Positions 4,688 to 45,700 of a stretch of DNA of 49,269 bases are shown in pieces. The number at the start of each line of letters is the position of its first letter. Position 1 is the first letter of the stretch. The DNA lies in IMG/VR virus record IMGVR_UViG_3300044711_000117, positions 1 to 49,269 of that record; one strand, written 5' to 3'. The position numbers and the translations under genes are program-made. The notes under the pieces were generated by a model. That model saw nothing but the letters and a program-made list of their open reading frames with translations, did not search any database and was not told where the DNA came from. The stretch comes from a virus. Lineage: Duplodnaviria; Caudoviricetes.

Positions 4688-4993
4688 TCAGGCGGCGGCG
4701 CGGCGCGCTACGCGCGGCTCGGGCGGCCGGGTCTCGTAGTTCTCCGCCGACTGGCTCGCGTCCCCTTCGAGGCCGTCCAGGTACGCGGCGACGGCGGTGA
4801 TGCGGGCGGCGACGCACTTTCCGATACGGATGGTCGCGGGGCCCTTTCCAGCCATGCGCCACTTCCGGTAGGTGCTGTACGTGATGCCGAGCCGGGTGGC
4901 GATGCCGGGCACGACGTTCCCGTTGTCGTCGGTGCTGTCCTGCGCGAAGCAGAAACCGGGCGGGGGCTTCTGGTGCTGCTGCCGTGTCGGCAC
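4688..4993 (-). CDS. AlpA/excisionase-like HTH protein
   Basis: IATRLGITYSTYRKWRMAGKGP..IRIGK pattern; directly downstream of the Cro-like gene. Confidence 0.75.
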   Translation of the reverse strand: MPTRQQHQKPPPGFCFAQDSTDDNGNVVPGIATRLGITYSTYRKWRMAGKGPATIRIGKCVAARITAVAAYLDGLEGDASQSAENYETRPPEPRVARRAAA

Positions 4994-5017
4994 GAGGGCT
5001 CCTAGATGCGTGAGGTT

Positions 5018-5275
5018 CTATTCAGTAGTCGAATCGGTCGAATCCGGAGCCGCTGGAGGCGCGAAAAGAACCAGTACAGCAACCCCGACAGCGTCGGCGA
5101 TAGCGTGGGCGAGTTCCATTTCGACGGTCTCCTGCGTGCCAGTGAGCAGTCGGTGCACCAGCGAGTGGTGACAGCCGACGGCTTCGGCGAGCATCCGGGT
5201 GCTGTACGGGGTGCCGCGGCCGGGGTGGTCCATGACCTTGGCCAGGAGATCCCGGTCGCGGAGGGTGTAGCGCAC
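5018..5275 (-). CDS. Cro-like XRE HTH regulator
   Basis: STRMLAEAVGCHHSLVHRLLTG HTH; divergent from the repressor; start could be further upstream (5332). Confidence 0.8.
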   Translation of the reverse strand: MRYTLRDRDLLAKVMDHPGRGTPYSTRMLAEAVGCHHSLVHRLLTGTQETVEMELAHAIADAVGVAVLVLFAPPAAPDSTDSTTE

Positions 5276-5340
5276 TCTCAAGAGGATCTCCGTTAGAACG
5301 AATCGGCTCTCGATGGGAACACTCAACCACACTCATAGCC

Positions 5341-5421
5341 GATTCGTCTACAGATCCGACCGACCGAATCCCCCGTAGCCCAGTAACCTCAGCATCAGTA
5401 GCATCACCCTGTAGACGATTC
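5341..5421. promoter_or_regulatory. Putative immunity operators: inverted pair GATTCGTCTACAG (5341-5353) / CTGTAGACGATTC (5409-5421)
   Basis: 12/13 inverted match in the cro-repressor intergenic gap; weaker copies near 5293 and 5463. Confidence 0.55.
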
Positions 5422-5524
5422 GTCGCCCCTGCGAGATGGTTGTACGGTCTGACCTGCGATTTGCAGAGACGATCCGTACCCGGTGAGAGACAACGGATTG
5501 AGCGAGAAGGAAGGGAAAGGCCCC

Positions 5525-5950
5525 ATGTCGGCGCCCGAGAGTGCCATCGAGAGCCCTCCCCCAGTAGACGCTCCGGCGAGCGACGCACTCAGCCGGCTGG
5601 TCCGCGACGTCCAGGCCACAGGCACCTCGTTCCAGCAGATGGCCGACCGCGCCCGCGCCCGCGGCCACGAGATCAGCAAGCCCTACTTCCAGAAGCTCGC
5701 CGCAGGCAACGTCTCCACCGCGCCGGATCCGAAACGGCTCCTCGCCATCGCCGCCGGCATCCAGGTTCCCCCCAACGTCGTCAAGCGCGCCGCGGCCCTG
5801 CAGTACCTCAACTACCAGGCGACCGAACTCGCGGGATACGACGAGGAGGTGCGCATCATCGTCGCGCACCTCGCGGGCAAGAGCCGCCCGGAGCTGCGCC
5901 GGTGGCGAGCGATGATCGAGGCCGAGGAGAGCGTCGCGGACGATGAGTAA
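5525..5950 (+). CDS. Immunity repressor (XRE-like HTH)
   Basis: SFQQMADRA...ISKPYFQKLAAG HTH; divergent from cro and upstream of int; no peptidase S24 domain. Confidence 0.75.
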   Translation: MSAPESAIESPPPVDAPASDALSRLVRDVQATGTSFQQMADRARARGHEISKPYFQKLAAGNVSTAPDPKRLLAIAAGIQVPPNVVKRAAALQYLNYQATELAGYDEEVRIIVAHLAGKSRPELRRWRAMIEAEESVADDE

Positions 5951-6103
5951 CACCCGACCTTGGTGGCACTGGGTGACATTCTGATAGGAAAAGTAGATAT
6001 TCACCTAACTACTTGTCGTCCTTTGGCCGCCGGTCGTAGTCTTCACGGGCCTCACACATCTGGGCATCTGCTCGTCCGGATGATGGGATGAAGGGGGGGC
6101 ATC

Positions 6104-6385
6104 TTGCTGAACGTGAACTACGCCCTTGACGACAGGATCGACGCCGATCACGCCGTAGTGGTGGAAGAGTCGCGAGGCAGCGTCGAGGTGCGGCTGTCGC
6201 CTGAAGTGTTCTCGGATCAGGCCTGCGCCGCTCTCAATGCGGCTAGCCAGCAATTCCTGGCGGGTGGTCAGTGGTTCCAGCTCTGGCGCGGTGAGATCGT
6301 CTCCATGGAGTCCCCGGAAGACCCGCGTCAGGGAGGCACAGTTGCCCGGCTACATCGAGGACAGGTGGTACACGAAGCGTCCTGA
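6104..6385 (+). CDS. Hypothetical protein between repressor and integrase
   Basis: TTG start with GGGGG RBS; 3' end overlaps the int start. Confidence 0.65.
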   Translation: MLNVNYALDDRIDADHAVVVEESRGSVEVRLSPEVFSDQACAALNAASQQFLAGGQWFQLWRGEIVSMESPEDPRQGGTVARLHRGQVVHEAS

Positions 6386-7721
6386 TCCGGCAACGGGCAA
6401 GCGCCGCCAGACGGCGCGGTACGGCAAGGGCAAACGGTGGAGGGTTGCGGGCATCCCGGGCGTCCGCGACCGTTCCTTCACCCGCGAGGTGGACGCCAAG
6501 CGGTGGCTGGCCGACTCGCAGACCGATTCCAGCCGCGGCACGTTCTACGATCCCCGTGACGGTGAGATCTCTCTGCGCGAGTACGTGGAGCAGCACTGGT
6601 GGCCGACGCTGCGGAAGGCGCCAGGCACCAAGCAGTCGATGCAGTCGCGCGTCTTCAACCACATCCTCCCGCACGTCGGGCATCTGGCCCTGAACCGCAT
6701 CGGCCACGATGAGGTGCTGGCGTGGCAGGCCCGAGCCGAGCGGTCCATCGACGTCAGTACCCTCGTGGTGACCTGGCGGCACTTCTCCTCGATCATGCAG
6801 GCCGCACACAAGGCCAAAAGGGTCCCCGCGAACCCGTTCCGCGACGAGGACCTGAAGGCGCCCGCGGTCCCCAAGTCGAAGGCGAAGGCCTGGTCACCGG
6901 AGACAGTCATCGCGGTCCGCGAGGCACTGCCGCCGCGGTACCGGATCCTGCTGGATCTGGGTATCGGCGCGGGCCTTCGGCAGGGTGAGGCGTTCGGGTT
7001 CTCCCCGGACGACATCGACGGCGACGAGATCGCCGTGGTGCGCCAGGTGGTCGTCATCCGCTCGCGGCTAGCGTTCGCGCCGCCGAAGGGCAACAAGGAG
7101 CGGACGGCGCCATGCCCGCCAGCACTGGCCCGGGCGGTGAAGGAGTACGCCAACGCCTTCCCCACGGTCGAGGTGACGTTGCCGTGGGTGGATCCGGACA
7201 GGCCGAGCCTGGCGTGGGAGGACCGGCCGCTGAGGACGGTGCGGCTGCTGGTGACGACACCCCGTACAGGCGGGAAGAGCGGCGGCGCGGTGAACCGCAG
7301 CCACTTCGACGACAAGCACTGGAAGCCCGCCCTTGCCCGGGCCGGGGTGATCCCGGAGCCGGAGACGGAGGTCACGGGGCACCGGCCGGGTAAGGGACCG
7401 GTGCGCCGGGTGAAGTGGGCGATGCCGCGCGAGGAGGGCTTCCACGTCACGCGGCACACGTTCGCGTCGATCGTGCTGCAGGCCGGCGAGACGGTGACAC
7501 AGTTGGCCGCGTGGCTGGGGCATTCCGATCCGGCGTTCACGCTGCGGACTTACGTGCACTTCATGCCGAAGTCGGGGAGCAGGGGGCTGGCGGCTCTCGG
7601 CGAGTGGGTGGCTCCGGGTGGCGGTGCCGCGGTGGAGATCTCACCGGCTAACGGATCTCCCCAGATTCTCCCCAGCGCACGGTCATCCGGCGATTCTGAG
7701 GGTATCCTCGCAGGTCAATGA
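6342..7721 (+). CDS. int: Tyrosine integrase
   Basis: TTG start after GGAGG; N-terminal arm-binding and SAM-like regions; catalytic GLRQGE, PPKG, HVTRH, LGHS, RTY. Confidence 0.95.
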   Translation: MPGYIEDRWYTKRPDPATGKRRQTARYGKGKRWRVAGIPGVRDRSFTREVDAKRWLADSQTDSSRGTFYDPRDGEISLREYVEQHWWPTLRKAPGTKQSMQSRVFNHILPHVGHLALNRIGHDEVLAWQARAERSIDVSTLVVTWRHFSSIMQAAHKAKRVPANPFRDEDLKAPAVPKSKAKAWSPETVIAVREALPPRYRILLDLGIGAGLRQGEAFGFSPDDIDGDEIAVVRQVVVIRSRLAFAPPKGNKERTAPCPPALARAVKEYANAFPTVEVTLPWVDPDRPSLAWEDRPLRTVRLLVTTPRTGGKSGGAVNRSHFDDKHWKPALARAGVIPEPETEVTGHRPGKGPVRRVKWAMPREEGFHVTRHTFASIVLQAGETVTQLAAWLGHSDPAFTLRTYVHFMPKSGSRGLAALGEWVAPGGGAAVEISPANGSPQILPSARSSGDSEGILAGQ

Positions 7722-7933
7722 CGTGCGGGGCAGACGAGTCGGGCTGTACGCCGGGTTCTGTGCCCCGGGATTCCGTGGCCTGGACCGGAGCCGCCGACTG
7801 ATCTCAGGTGCCGTCTGACCTGCGTTCTCTCCCGTTCAGATGTTGGGTTGACGTGTTCCGAATGGGGGTGGATTCGGGAGTTTCGGGTTCTCCCCCACTG
7901 CTCCCCTCCCCAACCACTCCCCAGATTCTCCCC
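7657..7933. repeat. attP arm-type direct repeats CTCCCCAGATTCTCCCC (7657-7673, 7917-7933) and inverted CGCAGGTCA/TGACCTGCG (7709-7717, 7816-7824)
   Basis: Exact repeats seen flanking the core. Confidence 0.8.
7731..7761 (-). other. rnpB: attP core = 3' terminal fragment of RNase P RNA (ACAGAACCCGGCGTACAGCCCGACTCGTCTG)
   Basis: Contains the conserved ACAGAACCCGGC element of bacterial RNase P RNA followed by a P1-like 3' strand; rest of the gene absent; lies just after the int stop, between arm repeats. Confidence 0.8.
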
Positions 7934-7965: not shown

Positions 7966-8211
7966 CTACGAAGCGGGTGGCCCGTCCGGGCCGATGCGCC
8001 CGGGCTCATATGGCACGGCCGCCCGGCTGGCTCCGGCGGCACGCTCGCCTTCGAGGATCAGCAGGCAGACCTTGCAGGCACGGATCTCCTGCGCCGGGCC
8101 GTCCTTGGGGTGGAGGACTCCGACGCTGGTGGTCTCGATCCCCGTGCGGGCGCACTGAAAGCACGACCCGATCGCCCATGAGTAGAGGCCGAGGATTGCC
8201 TCACTGTCCAT
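7966..8211 (-). CDS. Small zinc-finger protein (CFQC...CKVC)
   Basis: Two CxxC motifs; GGAG-type RBS; LexA box upstream. Confidence 0.75.
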   Translation of the reverse strand: MDSEAILGLYSWAIGSCFQCARTGIETTSVGVLHPKDGPAQEIRACKVCLLILEGERAAGASRAAVPYEPGRIGPDGPPAS

Positions 8212-8265
8212 TCCTGTCTCCCTGTTGATCTGGGCGCCGCGGTCATGGGGCCCGCAGCTCACTAC

Positions 8266-8281
8266 TTGAACACATGTTCGA
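8266..8281. promoter_or_regulatory. LexA (SOS) box TTGAAC-ACAT-GTTCGA
   Basis: One mismatch to the actinobacterial consensus TCGAAC-N4-GTTCGA; adjacent TTGACA at 8284-8289. Confidence 0.75.
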
Positions 8282-8323
8282 TATTGACACGCACGTACTA
8301 GGCGCGTCACCTGCACCGCCCTT

Positions 8324-8384: not shown

Positions 8385-8624
8385 ATGCCATCCCTTGATC
8401 CAGTGCCCGACCACGTGCTTGCGCGGCGCCGACGGATCGGGATGCGAATCCGAGATGCCCGCTTGCATGCTGACCTGACCCAGGAGCGGCTCGGCGAACT
8501 GACGGACATGCACCGCAACACCATCGTGAACATCGAACTAGGCATCTACAGCCCGCGCCTCGACAGCCTGCTGCTGATCGCCGACGCGGTGCGGGTACCC
8601 CTGTCCGACCTGGTGCGCGAGTAA
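8385..8624 (+). CDS. XRE/Cro-family HTH regulator (79 aa)
   Basis: IRDARLHADLTQERLGELTDMHRNTIVNIELG, a classic HTH_3 pattern. Confidence 0.9.
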   Translation: MPSLDPVPDHVLARRRRIGMRIRDARLHADLTQERLGELTDMHRNTIVNIELGIYSPRLDSLLLIADAVRVPLSDLVRE

Positions 8625-11560: not shown

Positions 11561-11890
11561 ATGGGCGCTGAGCCCGCCGGGCAGTGGACGCTCACCATCA
11601 CCTGCCCGCGCCCGAAGAACCGAGCTGTCGATGACTTCCACGTCCGGCCGGACAAGGTGACCCGCGTGGGTGTCGAGTGGTTCGGCGAGGGTGCCGAGTT
11701 GACGCTCACTGCCCGGACCGTTCGCCTGACTCAGACCACCGACGCTCCGGTGCGCGATCTGACCATGTGGCAGCAGAAGTTGGCGACCGTCCTGTACTGC
11801 CTGATGCTCGACACCCACACCAACGGTGGCGCCTACCGACTTCCGCGCCCCGTGCGCACCGAGGTTCACGAGAAGGAGCGGGTGGCGTGA
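11561..11890 (+). CDS. Hypothetical protein coupled to the recombinase
   Basis: Strong GGAGG RBS; GTGA overlap with the recombinase start. Confidence 0.75.
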   Translation: MGAEPAGQWTLTITCPRPKNRAVDDFHVRPDKVTRVGVEWFGEGAELTLTARTVRLTQTTDAPVRDLTMWQQKLATVLYCLMLDTHTNGGAYRLPRPVRTEVHEKERVA

Positions 11891-13044
11891 CCGAGCCTGA
11901 AGAGGTGATCGAGGCGGAACTCGTTGACGACCACAACCTGCCCGCCATGATCCAACCTCAGGCCGCTCCTCAGCCGCTCGTTGACCGGCACACGATCCTG
12001 CGCCCCAATGCGCCGATCCCCACCACCGCGGACCTCCCGATGTACACCGAGGCGGACTTCCGGATCTCCGAGGAGACCGCCGAACTCCTCGACGCGGCCC
12101 CGCCCGAGAACACCAGCCGCACTTACAACTCGGCACGCCAGCAGTTCCGGACGTGGTGCGCCGAGCAGGGTCGTGTGCCCATGCCCTGCACCACCGCCAC
12201 GTTCGTCGAGTACGTCGGCCACCTCATCCGGCAGGACAAGTCCCCGTCGACCATCCAGGTCGCCATGTCTGCGATCCGCTCCGCCCACCCGGACGGACAA
12301 CAGCCAGGCATGAAGGAGGCCCGCGAAGCCCTCCGTAAGCACGCCCGAGGCTGGGCGCAGCGCCGCACTCCCAGGAAGGCCACCGGTATCCGCTCCGACG
12401 CGCTCACCGCCCTCGTCGCCACCTGTAACGGGGGACGGCCCAAGGACATCCGGGACGCCGCTCTCCTCACTCTCGGCTGGGGCATGTTGTCGCGGCGGTC
12501 GGAACTGGCGAACCTTCTCATCGAGCATCTCGCCGTCGAGGACGACGGCGTCACCGTGCGCGTTGCCTTCTCCAAGACCGACCAGGCCGCTAAGGGCGCC
12601 GAGACCTTCGTGCCAGCGGCCCCCGAGGAGCCCGACGTCTGCCCCGTCATCCGCATTCGGGCCTGGCTCGAGGAGCTCCGCCGCCGCGGCATCACCAACG
12701 GGCCGCTGTTCCGCGCCATCACCCGCGGCGGCACCATCCCCGCCCGGGCCGGGGCACGTGGCGGCTTCATGACGCCGGACGCCATCGGCGCCATCGTCAA
12801 GCGCCGTGCCGCCCTCGCCGGCCTGCCCGATCCAACCCGGGTCACCGCACACGGACTACGCCGCGGCCCCGCGCAGGAGATCGCCGAGGCTGGAGAGGAT
12901 CCCACCGCGCAGGGCCGCTGGAAGCCCGGCTCCCTCACCGTCCGGCGGTACTACGTGGAGCCTGCGCAGGGCAAGGCCAACAACCCGCTACGAGCCGTCC
13001 GCCGCAAGCGAGCCGAGCAGCGCCAAGACGGTGCCCCCGCATAG
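11887..13044 (+). CDS. Cre-like tyrosine recombinase
   Basis: NTSRTY N-terminal SAM-like domain, RDAALL, SRRSEL, SKTDQ, HGLRRG, QGRW (Trp as in Cre), RRYY. Confidence 0.92.
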   Translation: MTEPEEVIEAELVDDHNLPAMIQPQAAPQPLVDRHTILRPNAPIPTTADLPMYTEADFRISEETAELLDAAPPENTSRTYNSARQQFRTWCAEQGRVPMPCTTATFVEYVGHLIRQDKSPSTIQVAMSAIRSAHPDGQQPGMKEAREALRKHARGWAQRRTPRKATGIRSDALTALVATCNGGRPKDIRDAALLTLGWGMLSRRSELANLLIEHLAVEDDGVTVRVAFSKTDQAAKGAETFVPAAPEEPDVCPVIRIRAWLEELRRRGITNGPLFRAITRGGTIPARAGARGGFMTPDAIGAIVKRRAALAGLPDPTRVTAHGLRRGPAQEIAEAGEDPTAQGRWKPGSLTVRRYYVEPAQGKANNPLRAVRRKRAEQRQDGAPA

Positions 13045-27303: not shown

Positions 27304-28191
27304 TCAGGCTTGCATGCGGGTGGCGATGTCCTTGCCGATCCCGGTGGCCAGGGCCTGAACGAAGGCGGTGTTGGCGGCGAGCGCGGAGGCGATCTGCTGC
27401 ACCTGCGCGTCGGTCAGCGCTGGCGCCGTGGGGGTGGGCTTTGCGGCGAGCGCCTTGATGCCGCTCGCGGCGGCTGTGGCCTGAGCGGCTGCGGTGGTCA
27501 GCGTCTGGTGTACGTCCGGCGTGTCGCCGTGGGAGTAGTCCCAGCCCTTGGCGGGGACCATCGCGGCATGCAGTTCGGCGAGCTGGCGGGCCTGTGTGGC
27601 GTCCAAATCGATCTCCTGGGGTATGACGGGGCGCGGGTACTGGCCGAAGTCCGGCACGGTGGCGGCGTCCCAGTCGGCACCGCCGGACAGGGTCGTGCCG
27701 CCGGTCTGGCGGATGGTGGCGTGCGCGGACCACAAGCCGTTCGACCACGCGATGGTCTGCCAGAGGTACCGGTAGCCGGCCGTGGCGGCGCCTTCGATGA
27801 CGCGGTATCCGCCATACACCCCTGTGCGGCCCTGGCCGATGACGGACGCGACGCCGGCCATGTACGCGGCCGCTGCGGACCAGCTGGTGTCCGTATCCAC
27901 CGCGAAGTGGATGACCATGTCGCCGGGCAGGCCCACCGCTTTGCGCTGCTGCTCGGCGACCCGCGCATCCGCGACACCCGCTGTCCGGCCCGCGGTCGCC
28001 CGGCCGGCGGTGGTCTCCCACACCACGACCGTGGCGATGCCGGCCGCGGAGTAGGCGGCCACCTCGGAGGCGCGCAGGTTCTTGCTGGCGTCGGTGGAGA
28101 AGTAGCGGGCGACGAAGTGCGCGCCCACTTCCTTGATCTGGTCGACCGTCGGCCGGTCCCAGGCGATGTCCACCCCGGTCAGCGCCGCCAT
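27304..28191 (-). CDS. Endolysin, GH25-like (DUF1906/Rv2525c-type) glycoside hydrolase
   Basis: GVD, FVARYFS...KNL, VVWET, IHFAVD.D, GVYGG, WQT.AWS. Confidence 0.9.
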   Translation of the reverse strand: MAALTGVDIAWDRPTVDQIKEVGAHFVARYFSTDASKNLRASEVAAYSAAGIATVVVWETTAGRATAGRTAGVADARVAEQQRKAVGLPGDMVIHFAVDTDTSWSAAAAYMAGVASVIGQGRTGVYGGYRVIEGAATAGYRYLWQTIAWSNGLWSAHATIRQTGGTTLSGGADWDAATVPDFGQYPRPVIPQEIDLDATQARQLAELHAAMVPAKGWDYSHGDTPDVHQTLTTAAAQATAAASGIKALAAKPTPTAPALTDAQVQQIASALAANTAFVQALATGIGKDIATRMQA

Positions 28192-28192
28192 G

Positions 28193-29059
28193 TCAGACGC
28201 CTGCCTGCTGTCGCCAGGAATCGAACGCCGCGGCCAGCGTCCGATCACGGTCGGCTGGCACCGGGCTCGGCGGCTGGGGGGGCGCGTCCGGGAACGGATT
28301 CTGCTTGCCCGTCAATGCCTGGAAGTCCGCGCCCAGCGCGTGCAGGTCCAGGCCGGTCGGGGTCTTGCCCTTGGTGTCGGCCCACTCGCGGGTGATAACG
28401 ATCCACCCCTCGGCGACGTACCGGCGCCAGAACGCAGCCGTCATGCGCTGCACGGCCGCCCACGTGACGCCGTCGATACCGGACTGGTCGTAGCGCAGGA
28501 CAGGCACGCAGTGGCCGCCCAGGATGCGGGAACCGCGCACGTAGTCCCACGGCCGCCCGGCGTTGAACTGGTCCTCCGCGGACTTGGGCAGGTTAATGCC
28601 TGTGATCACCGCGTCGAACAGGTCGATGCCGAGCTGCACCTCGGTCGCGTTTGACACATCGACCGCAGCGAACGCCACGATCTCGTGCCCCGCGAAGGTG
28701 TGCTTCAGGGCGTAGCCGAGCATGTCCTGGAGGACCACGCCGACATCCGTGGACTCGTCGCCCGGCCTGAACCCGGACACCTCGGAGTAGAAGTCGATGA
28801 CGTCCTGCTCGGTGACCTCGACGGTGTGGCCTTGGGCGTAGGTGGTGACCGACTCGACGACGTGGCCCAGGCCGGCCGGGCCGCAGTCGCCGATGGTGTC
28901 GTTTCCGTACATCGGCCACTCGGGGACGTGGCTGATCCAGTCCGCGGATGGCGGGGTGGCGGGCAGCGGCGTCGTGGCGATGTAGTCGGCGAGCCGGAGC
29001 CGCGGCTGGCCCGGGCGCGCCGGCTTCAGGCCGGGGCGGAACGTGATGGTGCTGGACAA
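28193..29059 (-). CDS. Papain-like cysteine peptidase (second lysis enzyme)
   Basis: MYGND.IGDC (Cys), GGHCV (His), VTW; adjacent to the endolysin. Confidence 0.75.
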   Translation of the reverse strand: MSSTITFRPGLKPARPGQPRLRLADYIATTPLPATPPSADWISHVPEWPMYGNDTIGDCGPAGLGHVVESVTTYAQGHTVEVTEQDVIDFYSEVSGFRPGDESTDVGVVLQDMLGYALKHTFAGHEIVAFAAVDVSNATEVQLGIDLFDAVITGINLPKSAEDQFNAGRPWDYVRGSRILGGHCVPVLRYDQSGIDGVTWAAVQRMTAAFWRRYVAEGWIVITREWADTKGKTPTGLDLHALGADFQALTGKQNPFPDAPPQPPSPVPADRDRTLAAAFDSWRQQAGV

Positions 29060-29115
29060 GGGCCCTCCCGGGCATGAGAAAACCCCGGCCGTCGGCGCGG
29101 GGCGAGGGGTGTGGG

Positions 29116-29268
29116 TCAGGAGATGGGGCCGTCTGGGGGTGTGTCATCGGGCGGTAGCCCCGGGGACGCGACGGGGTCGGGAGGGATCACGCCGTCGGCG
29201 ACGAGGGTCGCGGTGTCGGCCGGCGCCGGGTCTGGGGGCGGTGTGGAGGGCCGCTGGGAGACGGGCAT
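29116..29268 (-). CDS. Small Pro-rich protein
   Basis: GAGG RBS after the tail gene stop. Confidence 0.5.
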   Translation of the reverse strand: MPVSQRPSTPPPDPAPADTATLVADGVIPPDPVASPGLPPDDTPPDGPIS

Positions 29269-29275
29269 CGGGGCC

Positions 29276-29944
29276 TCACGTGGTGGCGGTGGAGATGCGG
29301 CGCATCCCGAAGGAGAAGCTGATGTTGATGGTGCCGCCGGTGGCTTGGTTGGCGTACACCTCGGCGTACCCGGGCGCGCTGAAGACGAGGATGCCGGACG
29401 CCACCGAGGCGTCGTTGCCGGTGCTGCCGAGCATGGTGTTGACGTGCGCATACAGCGCCGCGGTACCGGAGCCGTTCTGCCGGAACTCCATCCGGCCAGC
29501 GTTCGTGCCCAGGCTGGACTGCCACAGCGAGTACCCGGATACGGCGTAGGTGCCCGCCGTGGGCGCGGTCAACCGCGTGGGGCTGCCTGAGGACCACATG
29601 CCGGCGTAGTTGCCGCTGACCTGGCTGCCGAGGTTCAGCGCGGTGTACACCCCGCCGGACGACGGGAGGTTGAAGGAGCTGTTGTACGTCTGGACTTGCG
29701 GGCCCTCGATCGGCACCCATGCCGAGCCCTCGTACACCTCCAGGCGGCTGACGGAGGTCAGCCAGGTCACCATCCCGGCGACCGGCGCCGTGATCGTGGT
29801 CCCGCGCGCGGTGGCGTCCGTGAAGCGCATCACGCTCCGCTGGGTCAAGGCGTCGGTGAGGCCCTTGCCAAGCACGGTGAGATCCGGCTTGTCGGTGTAG
29901 TCGAGGTACGTGACGCCCTGCCCGTAGGCGTCGGTCGACATCAC
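29276..29944 (-). CDS. Minor tail protein
   Basis: RFTDATAR...PVAGMVTWL..V.RLEVYEGSAW; beta-rich C-terminal domain. Confidence 0.8.
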   Translation of the reverse strand: MMSTDAYGQGVTYLDYTDKPDLTVLGKGLTDALTQRSVMRFTDATARGTTITAPVAGMVTWLTSVSRLEVYEGSAWVPIEGPQVQTYNSSFNLPSSGGVYTALNLGSQVSGNYAGMWSSGSPTRLTAPTAGTYAVSGYSLWQSSLGTNAGRMEFRQNGSGTAALYAHVNTMLGSTGNDASVASGILVFSAPGYAEVYANQATGGTINISFSFGMRRISTATT

Positions 29945-30225
29945 ACACCACCAGTGGGCGGCATGGCGTCCTCGATGCAGTCGCCGTGATAGGTGATCGT
30001 GGCCGACGTGTCGTACTCCACGCTCGGGTCGAGGACAGCCCGGGCCTGCTCGATCACCGCCGCCGCAATCGCCTTCATCACCTCGTCGCCATAAGTGTTC
30101 ATCCCGGTGGCCTGGAGGATGACTGTGGAGTCGTAGCGAAAGACCTCGTCTTCCTCGGCGGTGGTGACCACTTCAACCAGCACGCGGGCCGTTACCGGCG
30201 CGTACCCATCGGTCGGCATGGGCAT
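29941..30225 (-). CDS. Hypothetical acidic protein in the tail module
   Basis: GAGGGG RBS; coupled to the next gene. Confidence 0.7.
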   Translation of the reverse strand: MPMPTDGYAPVTARVLVEVVTTAEEDEVFRYDSTVILQATGMNTYGDEVMKAIAAAVIEQARAVLDPSVEYDTSATITYHGDCIEDAMPPTGGV

Positions 30226-30242
30226 ATGAAAATCCCCTCGTT

Positions 30243-30833
30243 TCAGGCGAGTCGGTAGCGGGCCATGTCCAGCGCTGCCCAGGAGGCTGTGCCTGCGTAG
30301 TCGTTGATCTGCACGGTGCCGTTGACGTTGACGTCCAGGACAGCGAAGACTCCGCTGGCGACCTCGGTGGTGAAACGGGCCTTGGACGCCGGCCACAGCG
30401 CGGAGGGCAGAGTGCAGACGGTGGAGGCACCGGTCGTGGAGGCCGGCGCTTTCGCCAGCCCGCATAGGCTGACAGTCCCGTCGCGGTTGTCGTGGTATGC
30501 GGGCGTGTTGTACGGGCTTCCCCACGCCGACCACGACCCGGAGAGGCTTAGCGTTGTCCACCCGTCGTTCGTTGTGGCTAGGCGCCCGGGGCAGATCCAG
30601 TTGCCGGAGCCGGACTGGTGGATGATCACCTGGTCGCCCACGGCGGGCGCACGGTAGGACTGCAGGCGGCGGGCGGTGATTCCGTCGGAGGTGACGATCG
30701 TGCCAGTGCTGTTGACGGTGGAGACGGTGGCGGTGCGCCAGTCCGCGCCTCGGGTGCGCGGGTCGGCGCGGGCCTGCTGCCGGGCCCGGTGGGCGATCGC
30801 GGCGGCGGCCCGGCGGGCGGCGTGGCTGCTCAC
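30243..30833 (-). CDS. Minor tail protein (OB-fold-like N-terminus, beta C-terminus)
   Basis: RRLQSY..PAVGDQV; GTVSLCGL...TLPSALWP. Confidence 0.8.
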   Translation of the reverse strand: MSSHAARRAAAAIAHRARQQARADPRTRGADWRTATVSTVNSTGTIVTSDGITARRLQSYRAPAVGDQVIIHQSGSGNWICPGRLATTNDGWTTLSLSGSWSAWGSPYNTPAYHDNRDGTVSLCGLAKAPASTTGASTVCTLPSALWPASKARFTTEVASGVFAVLDVNVNGTVQINDYAGTASWAALDMARYRLA

Positions 30834-31930
30834 GAGTCCTCCTGTGCGCTGATGGTGGCGAGCACGAAGTCCCCGCCGGTCGTCAGGTCGATGCTGAAGC
30901 TGGCCACCTGGTGGATCTCGCGGGACCCGTCGAGGTACACCACCCGGATCACGTCCCCCGGCTCCAGCAGCGGGTTCGGCAGCGAGGTGACGTCGGCGAC
31001 GGCGTTCGGCTTGAGCCGGGTCTTGAGCATCTGCGTGGCCGCAGCCGTACACTGAGCGGTCGTGATCAGGCTCGCGCTGGAGTAGAAGGTGGGCACCCTG
31101 CCAAACGGGCCACTGACGTAGGTCGGCGAGGTGGGGTCGGTGTCCTCCACCGTCGCCGAGACGGGTGCCACGTTGTCCGCCGTGTTCTCCCCGTAGGCCG
31201 TGACACTGTTGAACACGCCCGCGCGGGCCATGCCGCGGGTCGCCGACACGAGCACGCCGCCCTCACCGGCCGCGACCTCCCACACCACGCTCGTCGGATC
31301 CAGATCCGGCAGGGGCGCGATGATGAACTGGCCGGCGGCGTCCGCGTAGAGCTCGGCGCCCAGCGCGGTCGCCAGGGTCGTGCACGCATCCCAGCGGGAC
31401 GCCTCCCGGTCCCACGACATCGTGCCGACCGTGGCGTCCGTGGCCCGCGAGATCACCGTCGCCGTGGGGATCGTCCCCTGGATCAGGGTGGTGATCCCCG
31501 CTACCGCCGAGCCGGATGTGAGCGTCACCGGCGCTTTGAACACGTCGTCGATGACGAAGCTCTCCAGCCCCGACCCTGTGATGGTGACCGGCCCGGTGTC
31601 GGGGTCGCCCTGCACGTCGTCGATCCTGAACACACCGAGCGGCACCAGATCAGGCGCCGACCCGTCGCCGTAGTCAATGCCGCGACGGATCCGCAGCTGC
31701 GCGCCGTACACGCTGAGCTTGTCGGCGGGTGTGCGCGGAATCAGGCTGGTGTCCGCCAGAGTCACCGTGCAGGTGCGGCGCACGGCCTGCCCACGGTCCA
31801 CCGTCACGGTCCCGCCGGTGTGGTCGAGCGCCTCGATCGTGCCGTCTGTGCGCAGTAGCTGCGCCTCGGTCACGACGCGGTGGCTGTAGGCCAGGGCCGG
31901 TATGAACCGGCTGGAGGGTGCCGTGTACAT
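30830..31930 (-). CDS. Minor tail / baseplate hub protein (DUF5047-like)
   Basis: GGTVTVDRGQAVRRTC, VPLGVF, GPFGRVP, PNPLLEPGDVI. Confidence 0.85.
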   Translation of the reverse strand: MYTAPSSRFIPALAYSHRVVTEAQLLRTDGTIEALDHTGGTVTVDRGQAVRRTCTVTLADTSLIPRTPADKLSVYGAQLRIRRGIDYGDGSAPDLVPLGVFRIDDVQGDPDTGPVTITGSGLESFVIDDVFKAPVTLTSGSAVAGITTLIQGTIPTATVISRATDATVGTMSWDREASRWDACTTLATALGAELYADAAGQFIIAPLPDLDPTSVVWEVAAGEGGVLVSATRGMARAGVFNSVTAYGENTADNVAPVSATVEDTDPTSPTYVSGPFGRVPTFYSSASLITTAQCTAAATQMLKTRLKPNAVADVTSLPNPLLEPGDVIRVVYLDGSREIHQVASFSIDLTTGGDFVLATISAQEDS

Positions 31931-34156
31931 CTACACCTGCCGGTTGTCGAGGACCATGTCCAACACCGTCGCGTAGGCCGCGCTGGCGTCCAGGACCGTG
32001 GCCCACGTCGTCGCCACGTCCTGCACCGTCCAGGCCGCGGAGCCGCCCACGCCGCCGAGCGGAGCGTCGACCTGCGTAAGCGGCAGCGACCACTGGCGCC
32101 GGGGCTCGCCGCCGTAGGCGATGAAGCGGGCCTCGGTAGCCTCGCCCACGCTGGCGTACACGTCCTCGATGCCGAGGCCCGGGTTGAGCTGGATCAGCAG
32201 CGGGTGCCCGGTGTCGAGGAGGAAGTGCAGCGCCGCCCGCTCGGCGTCGCTGAGCGTCCACACCTGCAGCGTCCCGGTCAGGCCCCCGCGGACGTCAGTG
32301 AGGATCACGCTGTTGCGGCGGCCGCGGACCCGGTACTCCGTGGCCTCGATGGGGCGCGCCCAGTCCGGGGCGACGGCTGCGGTCAACCTGACGTTGCGCC
32401 ACGGCTGCTGCGCGTCTTTCAGCCACACCTCCGACGGGTCGGCCATGGCCAGGGACACCGAGGAGGATGTCGCGGACTGCTGCAGCGCGCCCGTACTGGG
32501 CACGTACAGTTCACGCCGGTACGTCACGTCCTGCCCGATGGGCGCCTCGTAGTCCTCCACGACCATCTGTGTGGAGGACAGGAGCGTGCCCTGCAGCCAG
32601 CCGTCCGGGCCCCGCACGATCGACTGCGCCCCGCCCACGACCCGGTACAGCGTCAGCGTGTCCCCGCTGTCCAGGTCTCGCATCGTGACCGTGATCAGAC
32701 CCAGATCGTCATCCGCCTCCACATCCCACGACGGGAGCGCCTCGAACAGCGCTGGCCAGTCGATCTCCAGCGTGCCCGCGGCCGGGGCGGTGATATCGAT
32801 CTCGATCGCAGCCGTGGCCGCGTTCGCCGGGGCGGTGACATCGTTCCAGGTGGCCCACCAGGTGCCCGTGGCCGGGACGCTGTCGGCGACCAGCGCCGAG
32901 CGTGAGATCGACGTGCCGCTGCCGTCGTACCAGTGGATATTCGGGCCGATCTGCCAGATCCCCGAAGCCGGCGCGAACTGGCCCTGCGCCCGCCACGACA
33001 CACTGGGCGTCACCGGATACCGGGCCGATGCCAGCACGCTCGTACCCGAGGCCGGGGCGGTCAGTGTGAGCGCGTAGCTGCCCCCGTAGGCCGCCGTGCC
33101 CCACGGCGTCGAGCGGGCAATGGTCGCCGACCCAGAGGAGATCGTCCAGCCGCCCACACCCTGCTCGAAGGACGTGTCCTCGTAGGACAGCACCGACCCG
33201 GGCACAAGCTGCGGGGCAACCTGGGCGACCGCGCCCTCGACGCGCACTACCTGCCCGGCCGTCGCGGACGTGATCCCTGCGGCGAGGACGCACGTCGCCG
33301 CCCCGGCTGGGGCGACCCCGGAGACGTACTGCCGGTACCAGCCGGTGCCGGGCGCGGCCAGCGTGCCCCTCTTGCTGCTGATCAGGGTGTTGCTGGCGTT
33401 GAACCAGCGCAGCTCGACCCAGCACGACGAGGACGAGGTGGACGGGTTGAGATAGCAGTACCCGCGGTACTCCGTACCCGGCACGACCGCCGGCGCCTCA
33501 GCCGTCTTGATGCTGGCGTTGCCGTTCGCGGTGACCGTGGCCTTGATGACCTCGCCGCCGGAGTAGTACCAGTCCACCGGCCACGACACCGCCGGCACGT
33601 CCCGGCTGATCGTGCAGTTGGCGTCCACCGCCCAGCCGCTGGTGTCGATTTCGCCGCCGGACTCGACGTTGAAGCTGAGCAGGTTGCCTGACGTCCGGAA
33701 CGGCTGCCCGAGGTACGCATTTTCGAAGAAGTGGGTCTTCCCGGATGCGCTGGTAGTGGCGGACAGCAGTATTCGCGCCCGCACCGCGCCGACCGGTGCC
33801 ACTGCGGCCACAGACACACGGTGCCACGTAGACGACGCCGCTGATGTTGTCAGGGACCAGGTCGCACCGATGGACGCCAGAGAGCCGCTGAACCACTCGA
33901 TGCCGATCCGTTCCGGCTGGTTAGCGCTGGAGGCATCGACGAACGCCTGGTATGTGACGCCGCCTGTCACCGAGTACAGCATGAACGTCGACGCCTGCAT
34001 CTCGCCCGCGGCAGCCGAGGTCAGCGTCAGCACGCCGTCGCCGTTCCGGCCGCCGCTGCCCAGCGACTTGGTGCAGTTGGTGACCACGCGCCACCCGGAT
34101 GTGTCCGGGTCGACCATTTCCGTAGTCGCGGAGAGGAGATTCCCCGGGATTGCCAC
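31931..34156 (-). CDS. Distal tail (Dit-like) protein with repeated carbohydrate-binding-like modules
   Basis: Three repeats starting GNLLS/GSVLS...E..(T)SGW; C-terminal DYEAP..WLKD region; follows the tape measure gene. Confidence 0.75.
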   Translation of the reverse strand: MAIPGNLLSATTEMVDPDTSGWRVVTNCTKSLGSGGRNGDGVLTLTSAAAGEMQASTFMLYSVTGGVTYQAFVDASSANQPERIGIEWFSGSLASIGATWSLTTSAASSTWHRVSVAAVAPVGAVRARILLSATTSASGKTHFFENAYLGQPFRTSGNLLSFNVESGGEIDTSGWAVDANCTISRDVPAVSWPVDWYYSGGEVIKATVTANGNASIKTAEAPAVVPGTEYRGYCYLNPSTSSSSCWVELRWFNASNTLISSKRGTLAAPGTGWYRQYVSGVAPAGAATCVLAAGITSATAGQVVRVEGAVAQVAPQLVPGSVLSYEDTSFEQGVGGWTISSGSATIARSTPWGTAAYGGSYALTLTAPASGTSVLASARYPVTPSVSWRAQGQFAPASGIWQIGPNIHWYDGSGTSISRSALVADSVPATGTWWATWNDVTAPANAATAAIEIDITAPAAGTLEIDWPALFEALPSWDVEADDDLGLITVTMRDLDSGDTLTLYRVVGGAQSIVRGPDGWLQGTLLSSTQMVVEDYEAPIGQDVTYRRELYVPSTGALQQSATSSSVSLAMADPSEVWLKDAQQPWRNVRLTAAVAPDWARPIEATEYRVRGRRNSVILTDVRGGLTGTLQVWTLSDAERAALHFLLDTGHPLLIQLNPGLGIEDVYASVGEATEARFIAYGGEPRRQWSLPLTQVDAPLGGVGGSAAWTVQDVATTWATVLDASAAYATVLDMVLDNRQV

Positions 34157-37100
34157 CTACGCCACACCTCCCGCCCGTAGTGCCTCGGTCAGCTCGATGT
34201 GCCCGTTATCGACCTCGACGCGGATCAGGTCCCTCAACTTCGGGTCGCTGAAGTGGACGTGCACGACGGGCGACACGGCCACGGCGGTGCGGCCACCACC
34301 ATCCGTCGGCCGCCCGGCGCCGCTACCGCTGCGGGCGCGCACGGCGGCCATGGTGTCCGCCATCTGCTGCGCCTCCCGCACCGCGTGCGGCGCGTACTGC
34401 CGCACACCCACCGCGGCGCCGAGGGCGACCTGCTTGCCGACCTGATCCCGCAGCACCGTGGACGGGCTCTTGATGCCAAGCGCCTTCTTGATCGTGGCGA
34501 CCATGCCGCGAGCCAGCTTGTTCATCTCGGCCTGAATCTGCTTCTCCTGCGCCAACAGCCCAGACAGGAAGCCCTTCCCGGCGTCCTTCCCCGAGTCGAA
34601 CATGGCATCGGCCATGGTCCGGCCGAAAGAGGTGGTGAGCTTGTCCTGCGCGGCCGCGGCCTTGTTCAGGTTGCGGATATCCCCTGCGCTCGCGCCCGCC
34701 AGGACCGCCGCGAGCTGACTGCCCGGGCCGGCCTGCGCCAACTGGCTGAGCAGCGTCTTCGACAGACCCCGCTTCGACAGCGACTGCACCTCGGCCGCGA
34801 ACCGACTGGCGGTGCCTTGCCCGGTGCGCATCTGCCCGATCAGGTCCGAGATGTTGGTCGCGCCCGTACCGGTGACGGACAGGAAGTCGCCGAGGCCGCT
34901 GGCCTGGTCGCTGGCGAACTGCCGCGCCGCAGCGATCTGGGACTGGATTGAGGAGCGCTGATTGGCAAGGCTCTGCAGCCGGGCCGACGTGCGCAGATTC
35001 CCCGGGACTAGACGGCCGAAGCCAGCCGTCTGCAGCTTGGAATTGATCGACTTGACCGCCGAGGCGATCGCCGATGCGGACCCCGTCTCCAGCGACTTCA
35101 AGAAACCGTTGGCCAGGGTATTTGCTACCGACTGGACGCGCTTGGCCCTGGCGTTCGCGTTCGACAGTTCCTTGTCGGCCGCCGCCAGTTTCTTCCGCGC
35201 GGCCTTCAGCTCCTCCTCGGCCGCCTGGATCGCCAGCCGATCGCGCTTCCTCTGGCTCTTGGAGTGCGCTACCGCCTCATCATGCCGCAGCGCCGCGATC
35301 TCCCGCTCCAGCGCATCCACCCGCCGCTGAGCCGCCGTCACATCCGACCGGGCCCGACCTTGAGCCACCGTGCCCGAGGCGTACCCGGGCACCTGCATCC
35401 CCAGGTAACCGGCCAGGGCCATCGAATCCTGGTTGCTGTAGATGCGGGTACCGCGCGGGGTGACCTGCATCAACTCCGGGCCCTTCTCGCCCACCCACGC
35501 CGTCTGCCCGATCGGCGCGAGACCGCCCGATGCGTACCAGTGCGGCTTGTGGGCGTTCCACGACGCCCACGCGGTGATCGGATCCCCGTAGCGGCCCGAG
35601 ATGTACGACAGGCCCCACCGGATCTGCGTGGCGGCGTTTGTCTGCCAGTCGGAGCCAGCGCTGGCCATCTTGTTGGCCGGGAGGGCCTGCGGGATGCCGT
35701 AGGCGCCGCTGGACATGTTCTCCGCGTTCGCACGCCACCCCGACTCGGCGTTCCACAAGGCGCGCAGGGCGTCCATCTCCGCGGCAGCGTTCCCCGGCCA
35801 CAACTGACCGACCAGACCGGCCGCGTACTGCTGAGCGCTGGCCACATTCGGGCTCAGCGGAATGTCCTTGCTCTGCGGCGCCTTCGCCGACAGCAGCTTG
35901 CCGAGCCACTCCGCCGGAAGATTCACCCCGCTACTCAGCAGCGCCTGAGCCGCATCCAGAGGGCTCTTGAAGATGCCCTTCACGGTGCTTTCGAGGACAG
36001 CCTTCCCCGACAGGAGCCCCGAGAGCAGACCGGACATGATGTGCCCGCCGAGCTCCATCATCACCCGGCTGGGGCTGTGGATGTGGAACACGTCCTTGAT
36101 CGCGCCGACGATCTTGTCTTTGATCAGGCTCGCCCAGCGGCCGATGCCGTTCTTGGCGTCGTTGATGACCGCCCACGTGCCATCGATCAGGCCACGGATC
36201 ATGTCCGCGCCGGACCCCGTCAGCCACCTCTTCGCGCCGTCAAAGGCACCCACAGCGTGGTCGATCACGTTCCGCTGGAACCATCCGCCGATCCCGCGGC
36301 CGACGCTCAGCGCGCCGTCTTTCAGCCCGGACACGATCGCCGATCCGCGATCCACCAGCCACCGACCGGCCGTACGGAACGGCGACACGACCGGGCTGAT
36401 GACGTGGTCGCTCACCCAGCCGCCCAGCCGGGTAGCGCCACGAGAGATGCCTCGCGTCAGGCCGCCCACGAACTCGCCGCCACGCTTGATCAGCCAGCCG
36501 CCGGCCCCGACGAACGGTTTGAGCATGTAGCCGATGCCCTCACCGATCTTCGCGATCACCCACGCGAAGCCGGTCTTGATGCCGTTGCCGAGGCCCCGGA
36601 CCGCCGTGCGGCCGGCGTCCACCAGCCGCAGACCCCACACGCCGACGCGAGTCGTGAACAGGCCCGACTCGCGCTCCAAGACGGCCGTCCCATCAGGGAA
36701 GACTCGCACGAGGCCCTTCCACAGCGACTCACCGAAGAACTTCGCGACCTTCCCCGCGGCGTCACCGATCGGCTTCGTCAGCGCGCCGACCTTCCGCAAC
36801 ATCGGCGCCGCCGCCTTCAGCACCGGGATCCGCTCAAAGACCTTCGCCAGCGGGCCCGCGACCTTACCGACGCCGATGAAGCTGAGCGCGGCAATAACCG
36901 TGTCCCACCAGTGCTTCTCCCAGAAATGAGGAGAGAACAGGTCCATGCCGAAACTGGTGATGAACCCGATCGCGAACCCCAGCGACTGGCCGCCGACGCT
37001 CTTGCCGACGTCGGTCCAGTCGATGCCGCCGAGAGCCTTCTCCAGCTTCTTCGCGATGTCCGCCGTGTGCGTGGTCACCCACTGGAAAGCCGTCCCCAGC

Positions 37101-38617
37101 CCCTCGCCGATCTGCTTACCGAGCTTGCCCCAGTCGATGTTCCCGATGGCGTCACCGATGCCACCAGAGATCAGACCCCGCAACTGCTCGCCGAGCTTGG
37201 TCGCCTGCGACTTGACCGGCGCCGGAGCCTTCACCGTTGCCGGGATCCGCGTCGTCCCCACCTTCACCGTGGGGGACGGGACGATCAGGTCCGGGCGGCG
37301 CAACGAGTTCGGGATCAACGTGGCCGGCGCCTTGATGGTCGGCGACGGCAGCCTGACCACCGGCTTCTTCTTCGGAGTCAGACCGTTGAAGAAATCGCCA
37401 ATGAGCCCCGAGACTGTAGAGAAACCAGACTCGATCTGGTCGACAGGAACCAGATTCACCAGGGCAGTCGAGAATTTCCCTACCTCTGGTAGTGCCGACT
37501 TGTTCAGGTACGACACAAACGACGTGATCGGCGGCAGGAGTTTCATGCCAATCTTGATCGCGAATACGTCGAGATTCGATTCAAGGATCTTCAGTTGCGC
37601 GCCGGCCGTCTTACGCTGCGCAGCGACCGCCGGGCCATACTTCCCCATGCTGGAGTTGACCTGATCCTGCTTCTTCCGCAGCACGTCCAGGTTGTTGAGC
37701 AGCGTCAGGATGCCGCTGGAGCTGCGGCCGCCACCGAACGCCCTGCTGAGGATCTGCGACTGGCGCTCAGCCGACAGCCCGGACTTGTCGAGGTGGTCCC
37801 TCAACAGCGACACCGCGCCGATGAGCCCCTGCGGGCCGCGCATGGCCTTGGCCAGGTCGAGCCCGTTCAGGCCGATCTTCTTGAGCTGCTTGTCTGCGGC
37901 CGCGCTGGGCGCGCCCAACAGGGAGAACGACATCCGCAACCGGGTCGCCGCGTCCACGGCCGGAATGCCCTCATCCGTCATCAGCGCCAAGGCGCCACCG
38001 ACCTGCTTCAGCGACAGCCCGAAGGACTTCGCCGACGGCAGGATGCCCGTCCCGATCGCGGCGACGAAGTCCTCCATGCGCATGTTGCCCGCGCCGATGA
38101 TCGCGTTGACCGTGGCGGCCGCGGTGCTGAAGTCCCCCGCGCCCTTGATCCCGGACCGCCACGCGCCGGCCAGCGCGTTGGTCGTGTCCTCCAAATTGGA
38201 GCCGCCGAGCGCGGCCAGGTCCGAGGCGGCCTTCAGGTCCTTCATCGCGCTGACGTTGTCGAGCCCGACGCTCTTGAGGTGGTACATCGCGTCGGCCAAC
38301 TGCTGCGGGCCCTGCTCGCTCGTCTTGCCCAGCTGCAGGATGCCCTTGGACAGCACCGCCACGTCCCGCGCGGTGCCGCCAGCTTGGGTTTGGACCTTCT
38401 TCATCTCCGACTGGAACTCGACGGCCTTCTTCGCCGACTCGCCAAGCCCCACCGCGAGGCCACCAGCGAGCGCACCGCCCGCCAGAGTCACGGTCTTCGC
38501 CAGCCGCCCAAGGCCACGGTCCAGAACCGATGCCCGGCCGGCCACCCGGTCGAAAGTCCGCGAGGCGCTATCCCGGGCGATCAGGTCGTACCGGACACCA
38601 GTTGTGCGGATAGCCAC
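34157..38617 (-). CDS. Tape measure protein with SLT/lysozyme-like domain
   Basis: 1486 aa; TP901-type core, aromatic repeats, IHSPSR motifs, LWNAESGW...AYGIPQA. Confidence 0.95.
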   Translation of the reverse strand: MAIRTTGVRYDLIARDSASRTFDRVAGRASVLDRGLGRLAKTVTLAGGALAGGLAVGLGESAKKAVEFQSEMKKVQTQAGGTARDVAVLSKGILQLGKTSEQGPQQLADAMYHLKSVGLDNVSAMKDLKAASDLAALGGSNLEDTTNALAGAWRSGIKGAGDFSTAAATVNAIIGAGNMRMEDFVAAIGTGILPSAKSFGLSLKQVGGALALMTDEGIPAVDAATRLRMSFSLLGAPSAAADKQLKKIGLNGLDLAKAMRGPQGLIGAVSLLRDHLDKSGLSAERQSQILSRAFGGGRSSSGILTLLNNLDVLRKKQDQVNSSMGKYGPAVAAQRKTAGAQLKILESNLDVFAIKIGMKLLPPITSFVSYLNKSALPEVGKFSTALVNLVPVDQIESGFSTVSGLIGDFFNGLTPKKKPVVRLPSPTIKAPATLIPNSLRRPDLIVPSPTVKVGTTRIPATVKAPAPVKSQATKLGEQLRGLISGGIGDAIGNIDWGKLGKQIGEGLGTAFQWVTTHTADIAKKLEKALGGIDWTDVGKSVGGQSLGFAIGFITSFGMDLFSPHFWEKHWWDTVIAALSFIGVGKVAGPLAKVFERIPVLKAAAPMLRKVGALTKPIGDAAGKVAKFFGESLWKGLVRVFPDGTAVLERESGLFTTRVGVWGLRLVDAGRTAVRGLGNGIKTGFAWVIAKIGEGIGYMLKPFVGAGGWLIKRGGEFVGGLTRGISRGATRLGGWVSDHVISPVVSPFRTAGRWLVDRGSAIVSGLKDGALSVGRGIGGWFQRNVIDHAVGAFDGAKRWLTGSGADMIRGLIDGTWAVINDAKNGIGRWASLIKDKIVGAIKDVFHIHSPSRVMMELGGHIMSGLLSGLLSGKAVLESTVKGIFKSPLDAAQALLSSGVNLPAEWLGKLLSAKAPQSKDIPLSPNVASAQQYAAGLVGQLWPGNAAAEMDALRALWNAESGWRANAENMSSGAYGIPQALPANKMASAGSDWQTNAATQIRWGLSYISGRYGDPITAWASWNAHKPHWYASGGLAPIGQTAWVGEKGPELMQVTPRGTRIYSNQDSMALAGYLGMQVPGYASGTVAQGRARSDVTAAQRRVDALEREIAALRHDEAVAHSKSQRKRDRLAIQAAEEELKAARKKLAAADKELSNANARAKRVQSVANTLANGFLKSLETGSASAIASAVKSINSKLQTAGFGRLVPGNLRTSARLQSLANQRSSIQSQIAAARQFASDQASGLGDFLSVTGTGATNISDLIGQMRTGQGTASRFAAEVQSLSKRGLSKTLLSQLAQAGPGSQLAAVLAGASAGDIRNLNKAAAAQDKLTTSFGRTMADAMFDSGKDAGKGFLSGLLAQEKQIQAEMNKLARGMVATIKKALGIKSPSTVLRDQVGKQVALGAAVGVRQYAPHAVREAQQMADTMAAVRARSGSGAGRPTDGGGRTAVAVSPVVHVHFSDPKLRDLIRVEVDNGHIELTEALRAGGVA

Positions 38618-38659
38618 GACGTCCCCTCAGCTTCTCGGGAGCCGCCGCGCGGCCGTCAG

Positions 38660-39180: not shown

Positions 39181-39194
39181 GTGCTGCTCACTCT

Positions 39195-41633: not shown

Positions 41634-41643
41634 CACGACCCCC

Positions 41644-45699: not shown

Positions 45700-45700
45700 G

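Follow-up and report, generated by a model that had tools for sequence, protein, structure and literature searches.

Why should a phage carry the 3' end of a bacterial RNase P RNA gene (rnpB) directly behind its integrase gene? The question is raised by the window, by which we mean the whole linear virus record analysed here (49,269 bp, one strand shown, ~70% GC), in which a 31-mer follows the int stop by 9 bp on the minus strand (7761-7731), exactly where a reading of the sequence alone had placed it. That sequence-only reading had taken the 31-mer for the conserved 3' element of RNase P RNA, and had proposed that the phage inserts into rnpB and restores its 3' end. We consider it highly probable that a temperate siphophage of Streptomyces type has its attP at 7657-7933 and that gene-restoring integration into rnpB explains the locus as a whole; the host rnpB 3' end is very probably the target of the integrase. 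Both statements are arrived at by comparing the window with related loci.

The identity of the 31-mer is borne out by covariance search and by a host gene. A cmscan of 801 bases aligns it with the RF00010 3' end at 20.1 bits (E 3.4e-4); being a fragment, it does not reach the gathering score of 100 bits. By chance, 7e-14 occurrences of it would be expected in the window. It lies within a 44-bp block identical to rnpB of S. litmocidini, which comprises the P19 3' strand, CR-V, the P4 3' strand, the P1 3' strand and four trailing bases; the sequence-only reading had noted a resemblance of the bases past P4 to a Streptomyces P1 3' strand. A host allele identical over 43 bp, and running on into rnpB, is present on a contig of an independent soil sequencing run (X2). 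The window contains no full-length RF00010 gene, its fragment scoring 20.1 bits against 100, and no tRNA or tmRNA gene was found in its 49,269 bp. Since neither a full rnpB nor a tRNA gene is present and phage genes lie on both sides, the arrangement is read as the excised (attP) form. One 9.6-kb contig of sequencing run X1 crosses the att site without a joint; X1 is possibly the source of the window's DNA and is not independent of it.

Table 1. Coordinates of the putative attachment site, its integrase gene and other features of the window; offsets are in bp from the centre of the predicted overlap.
Feature	Position	Strand	Remarks
Candidate excisionase, immunity module left of int (4688..6385)	4688-4993	-	by position alone
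Cro-like HTH gene, immunity module	5018-5332	-	
Repressor-like gene, immunity module	5483-5950	+	
93-aa ORF, immunity module	6104-6385	+	
Tyrosine integrase (int)	6342..7721	+	459 aa from TTG 6342; longest ORF start 6237
Int-side arm-type repeat pair	7657..7673		two hexamers 11 bp apart, +79/+90
9-bp inverted repeat, left half	7709..7717		+35
Att identity block, 44 bp, contains the 31-mer	7727..7770	-	identical to S. litmocidini rnpB
rnpB 31-mer	7761-7731	-	9 bases (7722-7730) past the int stop
Overlap with two flanking imperfect core-type sites, ACAGAA and TACAGC	7743..7761	-	putative Int-binding sites
Predicted 7-bp overlap (strand-exchange) region CCCGGCG	7749..7755	-	P4 3' strand
9-bp inverted repeat, right half	7816..7824		-70
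Far-side arm-type repeats	7890..7933		four hexamers at -143, -159, -170, -181
Small conserved ORF right of attP	7966..8316	-	homologues ~500 bp or less from attR in 5/5 prophages, 38-46% identity
HTH_3 regulator right of attP	8385..8624	+	homologues near attR in 4/5 prophages
Second tyrosine-recombinase-family gene	11890..13044	+	4 kb from the att site
Siphovirus-type lysis/tail/head/packaging module	27304..49203	-	endolysin, tape measure, major tail, major head, protease, portal, terL, terS

Among the flanking genes in Table 1, the product of the candidate excisionase gene matched no family, and the small ORF at 7966-8316 has no PHROG match. Between this ORF and the divergent gene at 8385-8624, a perfect 20-bp palindrome (8333-8352), followed by T, looks like an operator or a terminator. 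Further to the right, an accessory block (9305-15005) encodes a 394-aa HTH regulator, a flavoprotein (PF02441), the second tyrosine recombinase and a methyltransferase, together with a 157-aa ORF without a match.

The int gene, ending in a TGA codon at 7719-7721, encodes a product that matches PF00589 (39.7 bits, over the cut-off of 27.1), phrog_1 (E 7e-40) and the HP1 integrase in the PDB (E 1e-4). Catalytic residues assigned by motif position, R213, K249, H368-x-x-R371, H394 and Y404, make up the R-K-H-R-H/W-Y set of the lambda Int family, to which the predicted protein would belong. Its N-terminal region gave no match to an arm-binding Pfam domain, and the match of its central domain falls below the cut-off. 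The nearest integrases are 82-83% identical (genomes) and 86% identical (viral contigs); none of the deposited phages has an integrase of >60% identity, the best among the matches listed being 20-27%, and those of VWB and mu1/6 are 24-27% identical.

The DNA around the fragment has the layout of a lambda-type attachment site. The 17-bp direct repeat (7657-7673 and 7917-7933, 21/22 when extended) and the 9-bp inverted repeat described earlier are both in place, the left arm repeat and the left half of the inverted repeat lying within the int coding sequence. Besides this pair of arm repeats there is more on the right, where the arm-type hexamers number four rather than two. With offsets measured from the overlap centre at 7752, the geometry was compared across 13 of 15 attP regions. 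The int-side hexamers stand at +79/+90 in all 13, the left half of the inverted repeat at +35 in 12 and the right half at -60 to -72 in nine. The left motif recurs at +34/+35 in five non-rnpB loci of relatives, which marks it as a predicted element-side accessory motif, present also where relatives target other genes. On the far side, the arms of relatives form two pairs near -170/-160/-143/-132, shifted by roughly 10-11-bp helical steps, and far-side-type arrays occur to the left of the displaced rnpB fragment in 9/10 attR sites, the fragment of genome G002 being without arms. A core between direct arm repeats at conserved distances thus points to an attP of the lambda type, and on the lambda model the repeats would be the arm sites of Int. 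A terminator supplied by the phage to the restored rnpB was also considered, and is not supported by hairpin counts: z falls below -1.5 in 8/24 phage-side flanks, 4/10 displaced host flanks and 4/19 single-copy flanks, and is -1.0 for the phage flank of the window.

What such a site does is best seen in lysogens of related phages. The integrase relatives comprise 45 genome loci and 44 viral loci. An rnpB 12-mer lies on the opposite strand, 43-153 nt past int, in 11 of the genome loci, and 10 of these, all Streptomyces, hold a full RF00010 gene (278-298 bits) arranged tail-to-tail with an integrase 67-83% identical to that of the window; in one (L040) the integrase beside rnpB is a 72% identical remnant, and the eleventh locus (L043) runs into an assembly gap of N. 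Elsewhere the rnpB end has one mismatch (L023) or is oriented opposite to that usual with respect to int (L015, L029). In the viral loci the exact motif is found in 18/44, mostly in attP form. A second, 5'-truncated copy of rnpB lies on the same contig, 57.3-75.7 kb away, in six of the 10 lysogens, and on another contig in three; one has none. Integrase homologues beside an rnpB with a duplicated 3' fragment, as foreseen by the sequence-only reading, are therefore real.

The intervals between the two copies behave as integrated prophages. In all five that were tested, the rnpB end carries int together with the repressor module, and a homologue of 7966-8316 is within ~500 bp of the displaced fragment; this placement of the attP-flanking genes at opposite ends is the permutation predicted by Campbell integration. 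Head, tail or terminase homologues are present in four of the five, G015 having no head or tail homologue. Gene-restoring integration is what these features argue for: rnpB is whole where it meets int, its 3' fragment is duplicated (in 9/10 genomes) at the opposite end, and the element genes are circularly permuted in 5/5. The proposal that the phage inserts into rnpB and restores its end is thus supported by the loci of its homologues, with the addition that protein-coding genes, too, serve as targets in the wider family. Restored and displaced ends need not be identical, as attL and attR differ at position 7 (G002) and position 10 (G018) to the right of the spacer; in G018 a C-A mismatch in P1 is turned into a C-G pair in the restored end. 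Comparison of host-gene synteny across the empty site was uninformative, as the genes downstream of rnpB vary by species and matches to single-copy flanks were confined to a few fragments. The idea that this integrase has a tRNA or tmRNA gene as attB was rejected: the window has none, and among 41 genome loci a tRNA gene is found near int once, ~2.5 kb away.

Two further observations concern relatives. Integrases 52-66% identical (L015, L029, L288, L308, L440) have reversed polarity at rnpB, with int upstream of the displaced fragment and on the same strand. An attP-form copy of a Streptomyces-type phage module (L023/L076) is found in a MAG labelled Kofleriaceae (Myxococcota), a placement that is probably a binning artefact.

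Where within the 44-bp block are the strands exchanged? The evidence favours, with good though not complete confidence, the 7-mer CCCGGCG at 7749-7755. The 7-mer is the 3' strand (7755-7749) of P4, the helix that makes up the catalytic core of RNase P RNA, and it covaries with the 5' strand in 88/88 distinct full genes, in three combinations (80/7/1). The frame comes from retargeted relatives, in which arm distance alone places a dyad, G(A/T)A-N7-T(A/T)C, around a 7-bp spacer (L039, L013, L022, L435, L439; weaker in L041); at rnpB itself the dyad is imperfect (3/6). In genome G026, which holds a relative that targets a gene of the MFS (major facilitator) type, the two junctions share 13 bp only, centred on the arm frame, and the far junction of G003 has arms at -172/-161/-143/-132. 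These five dyads and the 13-bp junction identity are what one would expect of a 7-bp overlap between inverted core sites. Among 85 distinct rnpB fragments, identity ends exactly at the edge of the 7-mer in 22 and one base beyond it in nine, 30 keep at least 13 bases and 12 keep fewer than seven, a count that is biased in that most of the 85 were found with a pattern requiring the 7-mer. A pattern without it raised the genus total from 417 to 432 matches and added 12 fragments of shorter identity. A resemblance of the fragments' left flanks to the dyad is seen in individual examples. Two possible secondary-site junctions (L140, L131), in which identity ends after TACAG, are not tied to a neighbouring integrase; L140 and L288 have a 47-bp end in common.

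The alternative of most weight accepts rnpB as the target and puts the exchange elsewhere in the block, for instance at its 5' edge on the CR-V/P19 side. For tRNA targets the crossover is reportedly placed, as a rule, where the block of identity begins on its 5' side, as Williams is said to have set out in 2002. In the clade's own attL and attR sites, identity always reaches 12-65 nt to the left of TACAG, so these junctions bracket the crossover only to ~18 bp and the 7-bp register is borrowed from relatives. All attP and attR sites of the clade keep at least nine, and nearly always at least 12, matching bases on that side, and in some members 22-65 bases match the variable P19 of the host. 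Even so, an exchange outside the 7-mer is unlikely: relatives with the same arm spacing share just the 13 bp centred on the CCCGGCG frame, in L029 (52% identical integrase) identity breaks off one base to the left of the 7-mer, which is enclosed by a 7-of-8 inverted repeat, and L023 has a mismatch three bases to the left of the 7-mer. The longer matches could be host sequence gained in earlier cycles.

To examine the specificity of the family, a quick tree was built from 87 rows, which came to 82 distinct integrases once duplicates were removed; it gave long-branch warnings for the distant members and does not fix the number of independent origins. The clade of the window integrase (28 rows, SH-aLRT 88) flanks rnpB in 26 of 28 cases, the exceptions being L004, at the MFS gene, and L013, at a sulfatase-like gene recognised by reading its translation. 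In a sample of 401 Streptomyces genomes, which includes the centre genome G001, not drawn at random, as well as the unpublished G155 (single copy), 10 have a close homologue (E at most 1e-150), seven beside the rnpB 3' end and three not. Targets other than rnpB comprise MFS, sulfatase-like, oxygenase-like, glucosidase-like and lyase-like genes, named from translations rather than from a family scan. The lyase-like gene, at its 3' end, is a target of sister clades, as are other coding genes. In one sister clade (L007, L008, L010-L012, L031, L036, L038, L057, L079; attP forms L009, L050, L051, L053, L054, L071, L077, L078) the final 100 bp or so of a coding gene are duplicated and the stop codon is restored; the translation resembles a rhamnogalacturonan lyase C-terminus. 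Close relatives are also integrated in the 5' part of an MFS-transporter-like gene (L004/L431 in G003, L039/L430 in G026). In G003 the element side seems to replace the 5' end of the gene with one that has an additional stop codon in frame, and in G026 the gene is simply split. A DNA search with the right flank of the window gave nothing useful on the far ends of retargeted elements.

Such switching is real in this family, and could be taken to mean that the fragment is no more than host DNA left behind as a relic, carried by a phage whose integrase has drifted to another site or lost its activity; the search also found no lysogen of the exact window phage, nor a lysogen junction in the sequencing runs, of which X2-X4 held relatives and host alleles only, in small shares that are uninformative on habitat. 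A relic is nevertheless very improbable. Retargeted relatives hold the sequence of their new target, not that of rnpB, in the core frame, whereas the frame of the window holds a perfect 44-bp match to rnpB; in addition, the int ORF is uninterrupted and encodes every catalytic residue, and the arm repeats keep their geometry. There is scarcely any likelihood that the segment is a small RNA or decoy (antisense to, or a mimic of, RNase P RNA) or a substrate of the second recombinase: complete RNase P RNA genes are indeed found in large viral contigs and the window does encode a second tyrosine recombinase, yet the segment has 31-44 nt only, lacks the 5' P4 strand and a promoter-like site, and splits into attL and attR in lysogens, where the first integrase adjoins the site in every case and a homologue of the second is found in one of five prophages (inside that of G017, ~6 kb from its end).

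Integration into rnpB, the preferred reading, would proceed as follows. Int would bind the arm repeats and the two imperfect core sites, and exchange strands across the P4 3' strand CCCGGCG, in the catalytic helix. The phage DNA would supply the last ~18 nt of rnpB, the P1 3' strand, and so rebuild the gene, with the old end staying as attR 55-75 kb downstream. The rebuilt rnpB would remain a usable site, permitting tandem stacking. Excision would likely need the small protein encoded at 4688-4993, to go by the position of its gene.

How widely rnpB is used as an insertion site was gauged from its 3' end. A 23-nt rnpB-end pattern matches 331 of the 401 Streptomyces genomes, 66 of which carry two to four copies; a reversed-pattern control gave none. 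In 35 of 36 multi-copy genomes inspected at least one extra copy is a 3' fragment, G333 having a whole-gene duplication instead. An integrase lies within the fetched flanks in ~13 of the 36, several being only 24-53% identical to that of the window, and the remaining genomes look like remnants or had flanks fetched too short. Tandem arrays of rnpB ends are found in G076, G121 and G360. The gene looks like a hotspot in which the extra ends stem mostly from other integrase lineages or remnants. The sequence-only reading had offered it as a possible conserved single-copy site for Streptomyces vectors, an idea to be set beside the fact that about one fifth of the pattern-positive Streptomyces genomes already hold extra ends, several of them stacked in tandem. 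Among 251 genomes of Actinomycetes, 19 of the 127 with a match have two copies (16/122 without the unpublished G430, G438, G447, G454 and G458), and a full-length integrase lies within ~3 kb of one copy in 6 of 12 pairs inspected, with a short remnant in one more.

A generic-motif search of viral contigs returned at least 80 matches, most of them full host or phage genes or inside ORFs; among the matches listed, five of 55 scanned neighbouring ORFs are tyrosine integrases. The motif is 42-181 nt from a convergent tyrosine integrase gene in L181, L190, L227 and L241 (24% GC); L231 was discounted, its motif being inside the integrase ORF itself. Viral contigs of 170-460 kb (L166, L173, L176, L198, L199) hold full RF00010 genes (104-247 bits), those of L173, L176 and L199 in tRNA clusters. 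In L209 the gene for a Mu F-like head protein is ~900 bp away from an rnpB-like gene (273 bits), and L175, L192, L201, L212, L219, L222 and L233 are GC-rich viral loci of similar kind; low-GC viral records that end just past rnpB are L168, L170, L188, L189, L197, L207, L214 and L216. No integrase was seen beside rnpB in the L209-type or the low-GC loci. Non-phage inserts (L282-L286, L292, L293, L313) bring to rnpB cargo such as a Schlafen-type helicase, an N6 methylase, UvrD, a kinase and a RecQ-like protein, which suggests defence islands at the site.

On balance, and with reserve, we lean towards regarding rnpB as an overlooked major class of att site beside tRNA and tmRNA genes. It would be a conserved, self-restoring site used by distant tyrosine-integrase lineages (24-47% identical) that all exchange in the P4 3' strand, occupied or scarred in about one fifth of Streptomyces species and about one eighth of other Actinomycetes with a detectable motif, and extending beyond the Actinobacteria, as the 24%-GC viral contig indicates. 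If this is true, island finders based on tRNA and tmRNA genes would miss insertions at rnpB, the boundaries of which, in prophages and islands alike, now become mappable. If strands are exchanged in this catalytic element, which is more conserved than any other in RNase P, the use of one site by several integrase lineages would be accounted for. From the int-attP unit a vector could be derived that is orthogonal to the integration systems in use in Streptomyces, both those that target tRNA genes and those based on serine integrases, and target switching under a fixed attP geometry offers a natural series for studies of integrase specificity.

Gene-restoring integration at tRNA and tmRNA genes is a textbook mechanism, of which VWB, mu1/6 and pSAM2 are Streptomyces examples. 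The window resembles lambda/HP1-type integrators of this kind in having int beside attP, arm repeats, and a 7-bp overlap predicted between core sites, and in the duplication of the 3' end, the gene being whole at one junction, in lysogens of relatives, and its displaced fragment marking the second junction. It differs in its probable target, the gene of the RNase P ribozyme, and in its predicted overlap, which is a strand of the catalytic helix rather than the anticodon or T loop. csRNAs are multi-copy regulatory RNAs, whereas rnpB is a single-copy gene for an essential ribozyme. No report of rnpB as attB was found in CC-licensed PMC full text and bioRxiv, and subscription papers or tables of island databases may list it; in excerpts of PMC2516327, PMC13573593, PMC2818188, PMC4256840 and PMC2864759, RNase P or rnpB occurs only as a marker or annotation. 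The mechanism is thus known and the essential-ribozyme target apparently undescribed, and with rnpB the few RNA genes that serve as docking sites for phages would come to include one for an essential ribozyme. The RNA targets named in the introduction to a paper on the Enterococcus phage phiEf11 are tRNA, tmRNA and csRNA genes, rnpB being absent from that introduction; the pneumococcal prophages in csRNA genes cited in the same paper share with the window a non-coding RNA gene as attB (PMC12540744). According to passages of that paper, phiEf11, the nearest analogue that the literature search brought up, integrates into ffs, the gene for the 4.5S SRP RNA, through a 27-nt core close to the integrase stop, and the RNA 3' end is reported to be altered, ffs being only partly reconstituted (PMC12540744). 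Like phiEf11, the window phage would thus use a conserved housekeeping RNA gene other than a tRNA gene as attB; unlike phiEf11, it would do so with another RNA in another host, and the phage copy would restore the whole 3' end of rnpB, identical or with one base of P1 changed, as in G018 (PMC12540744 for phiEf11).
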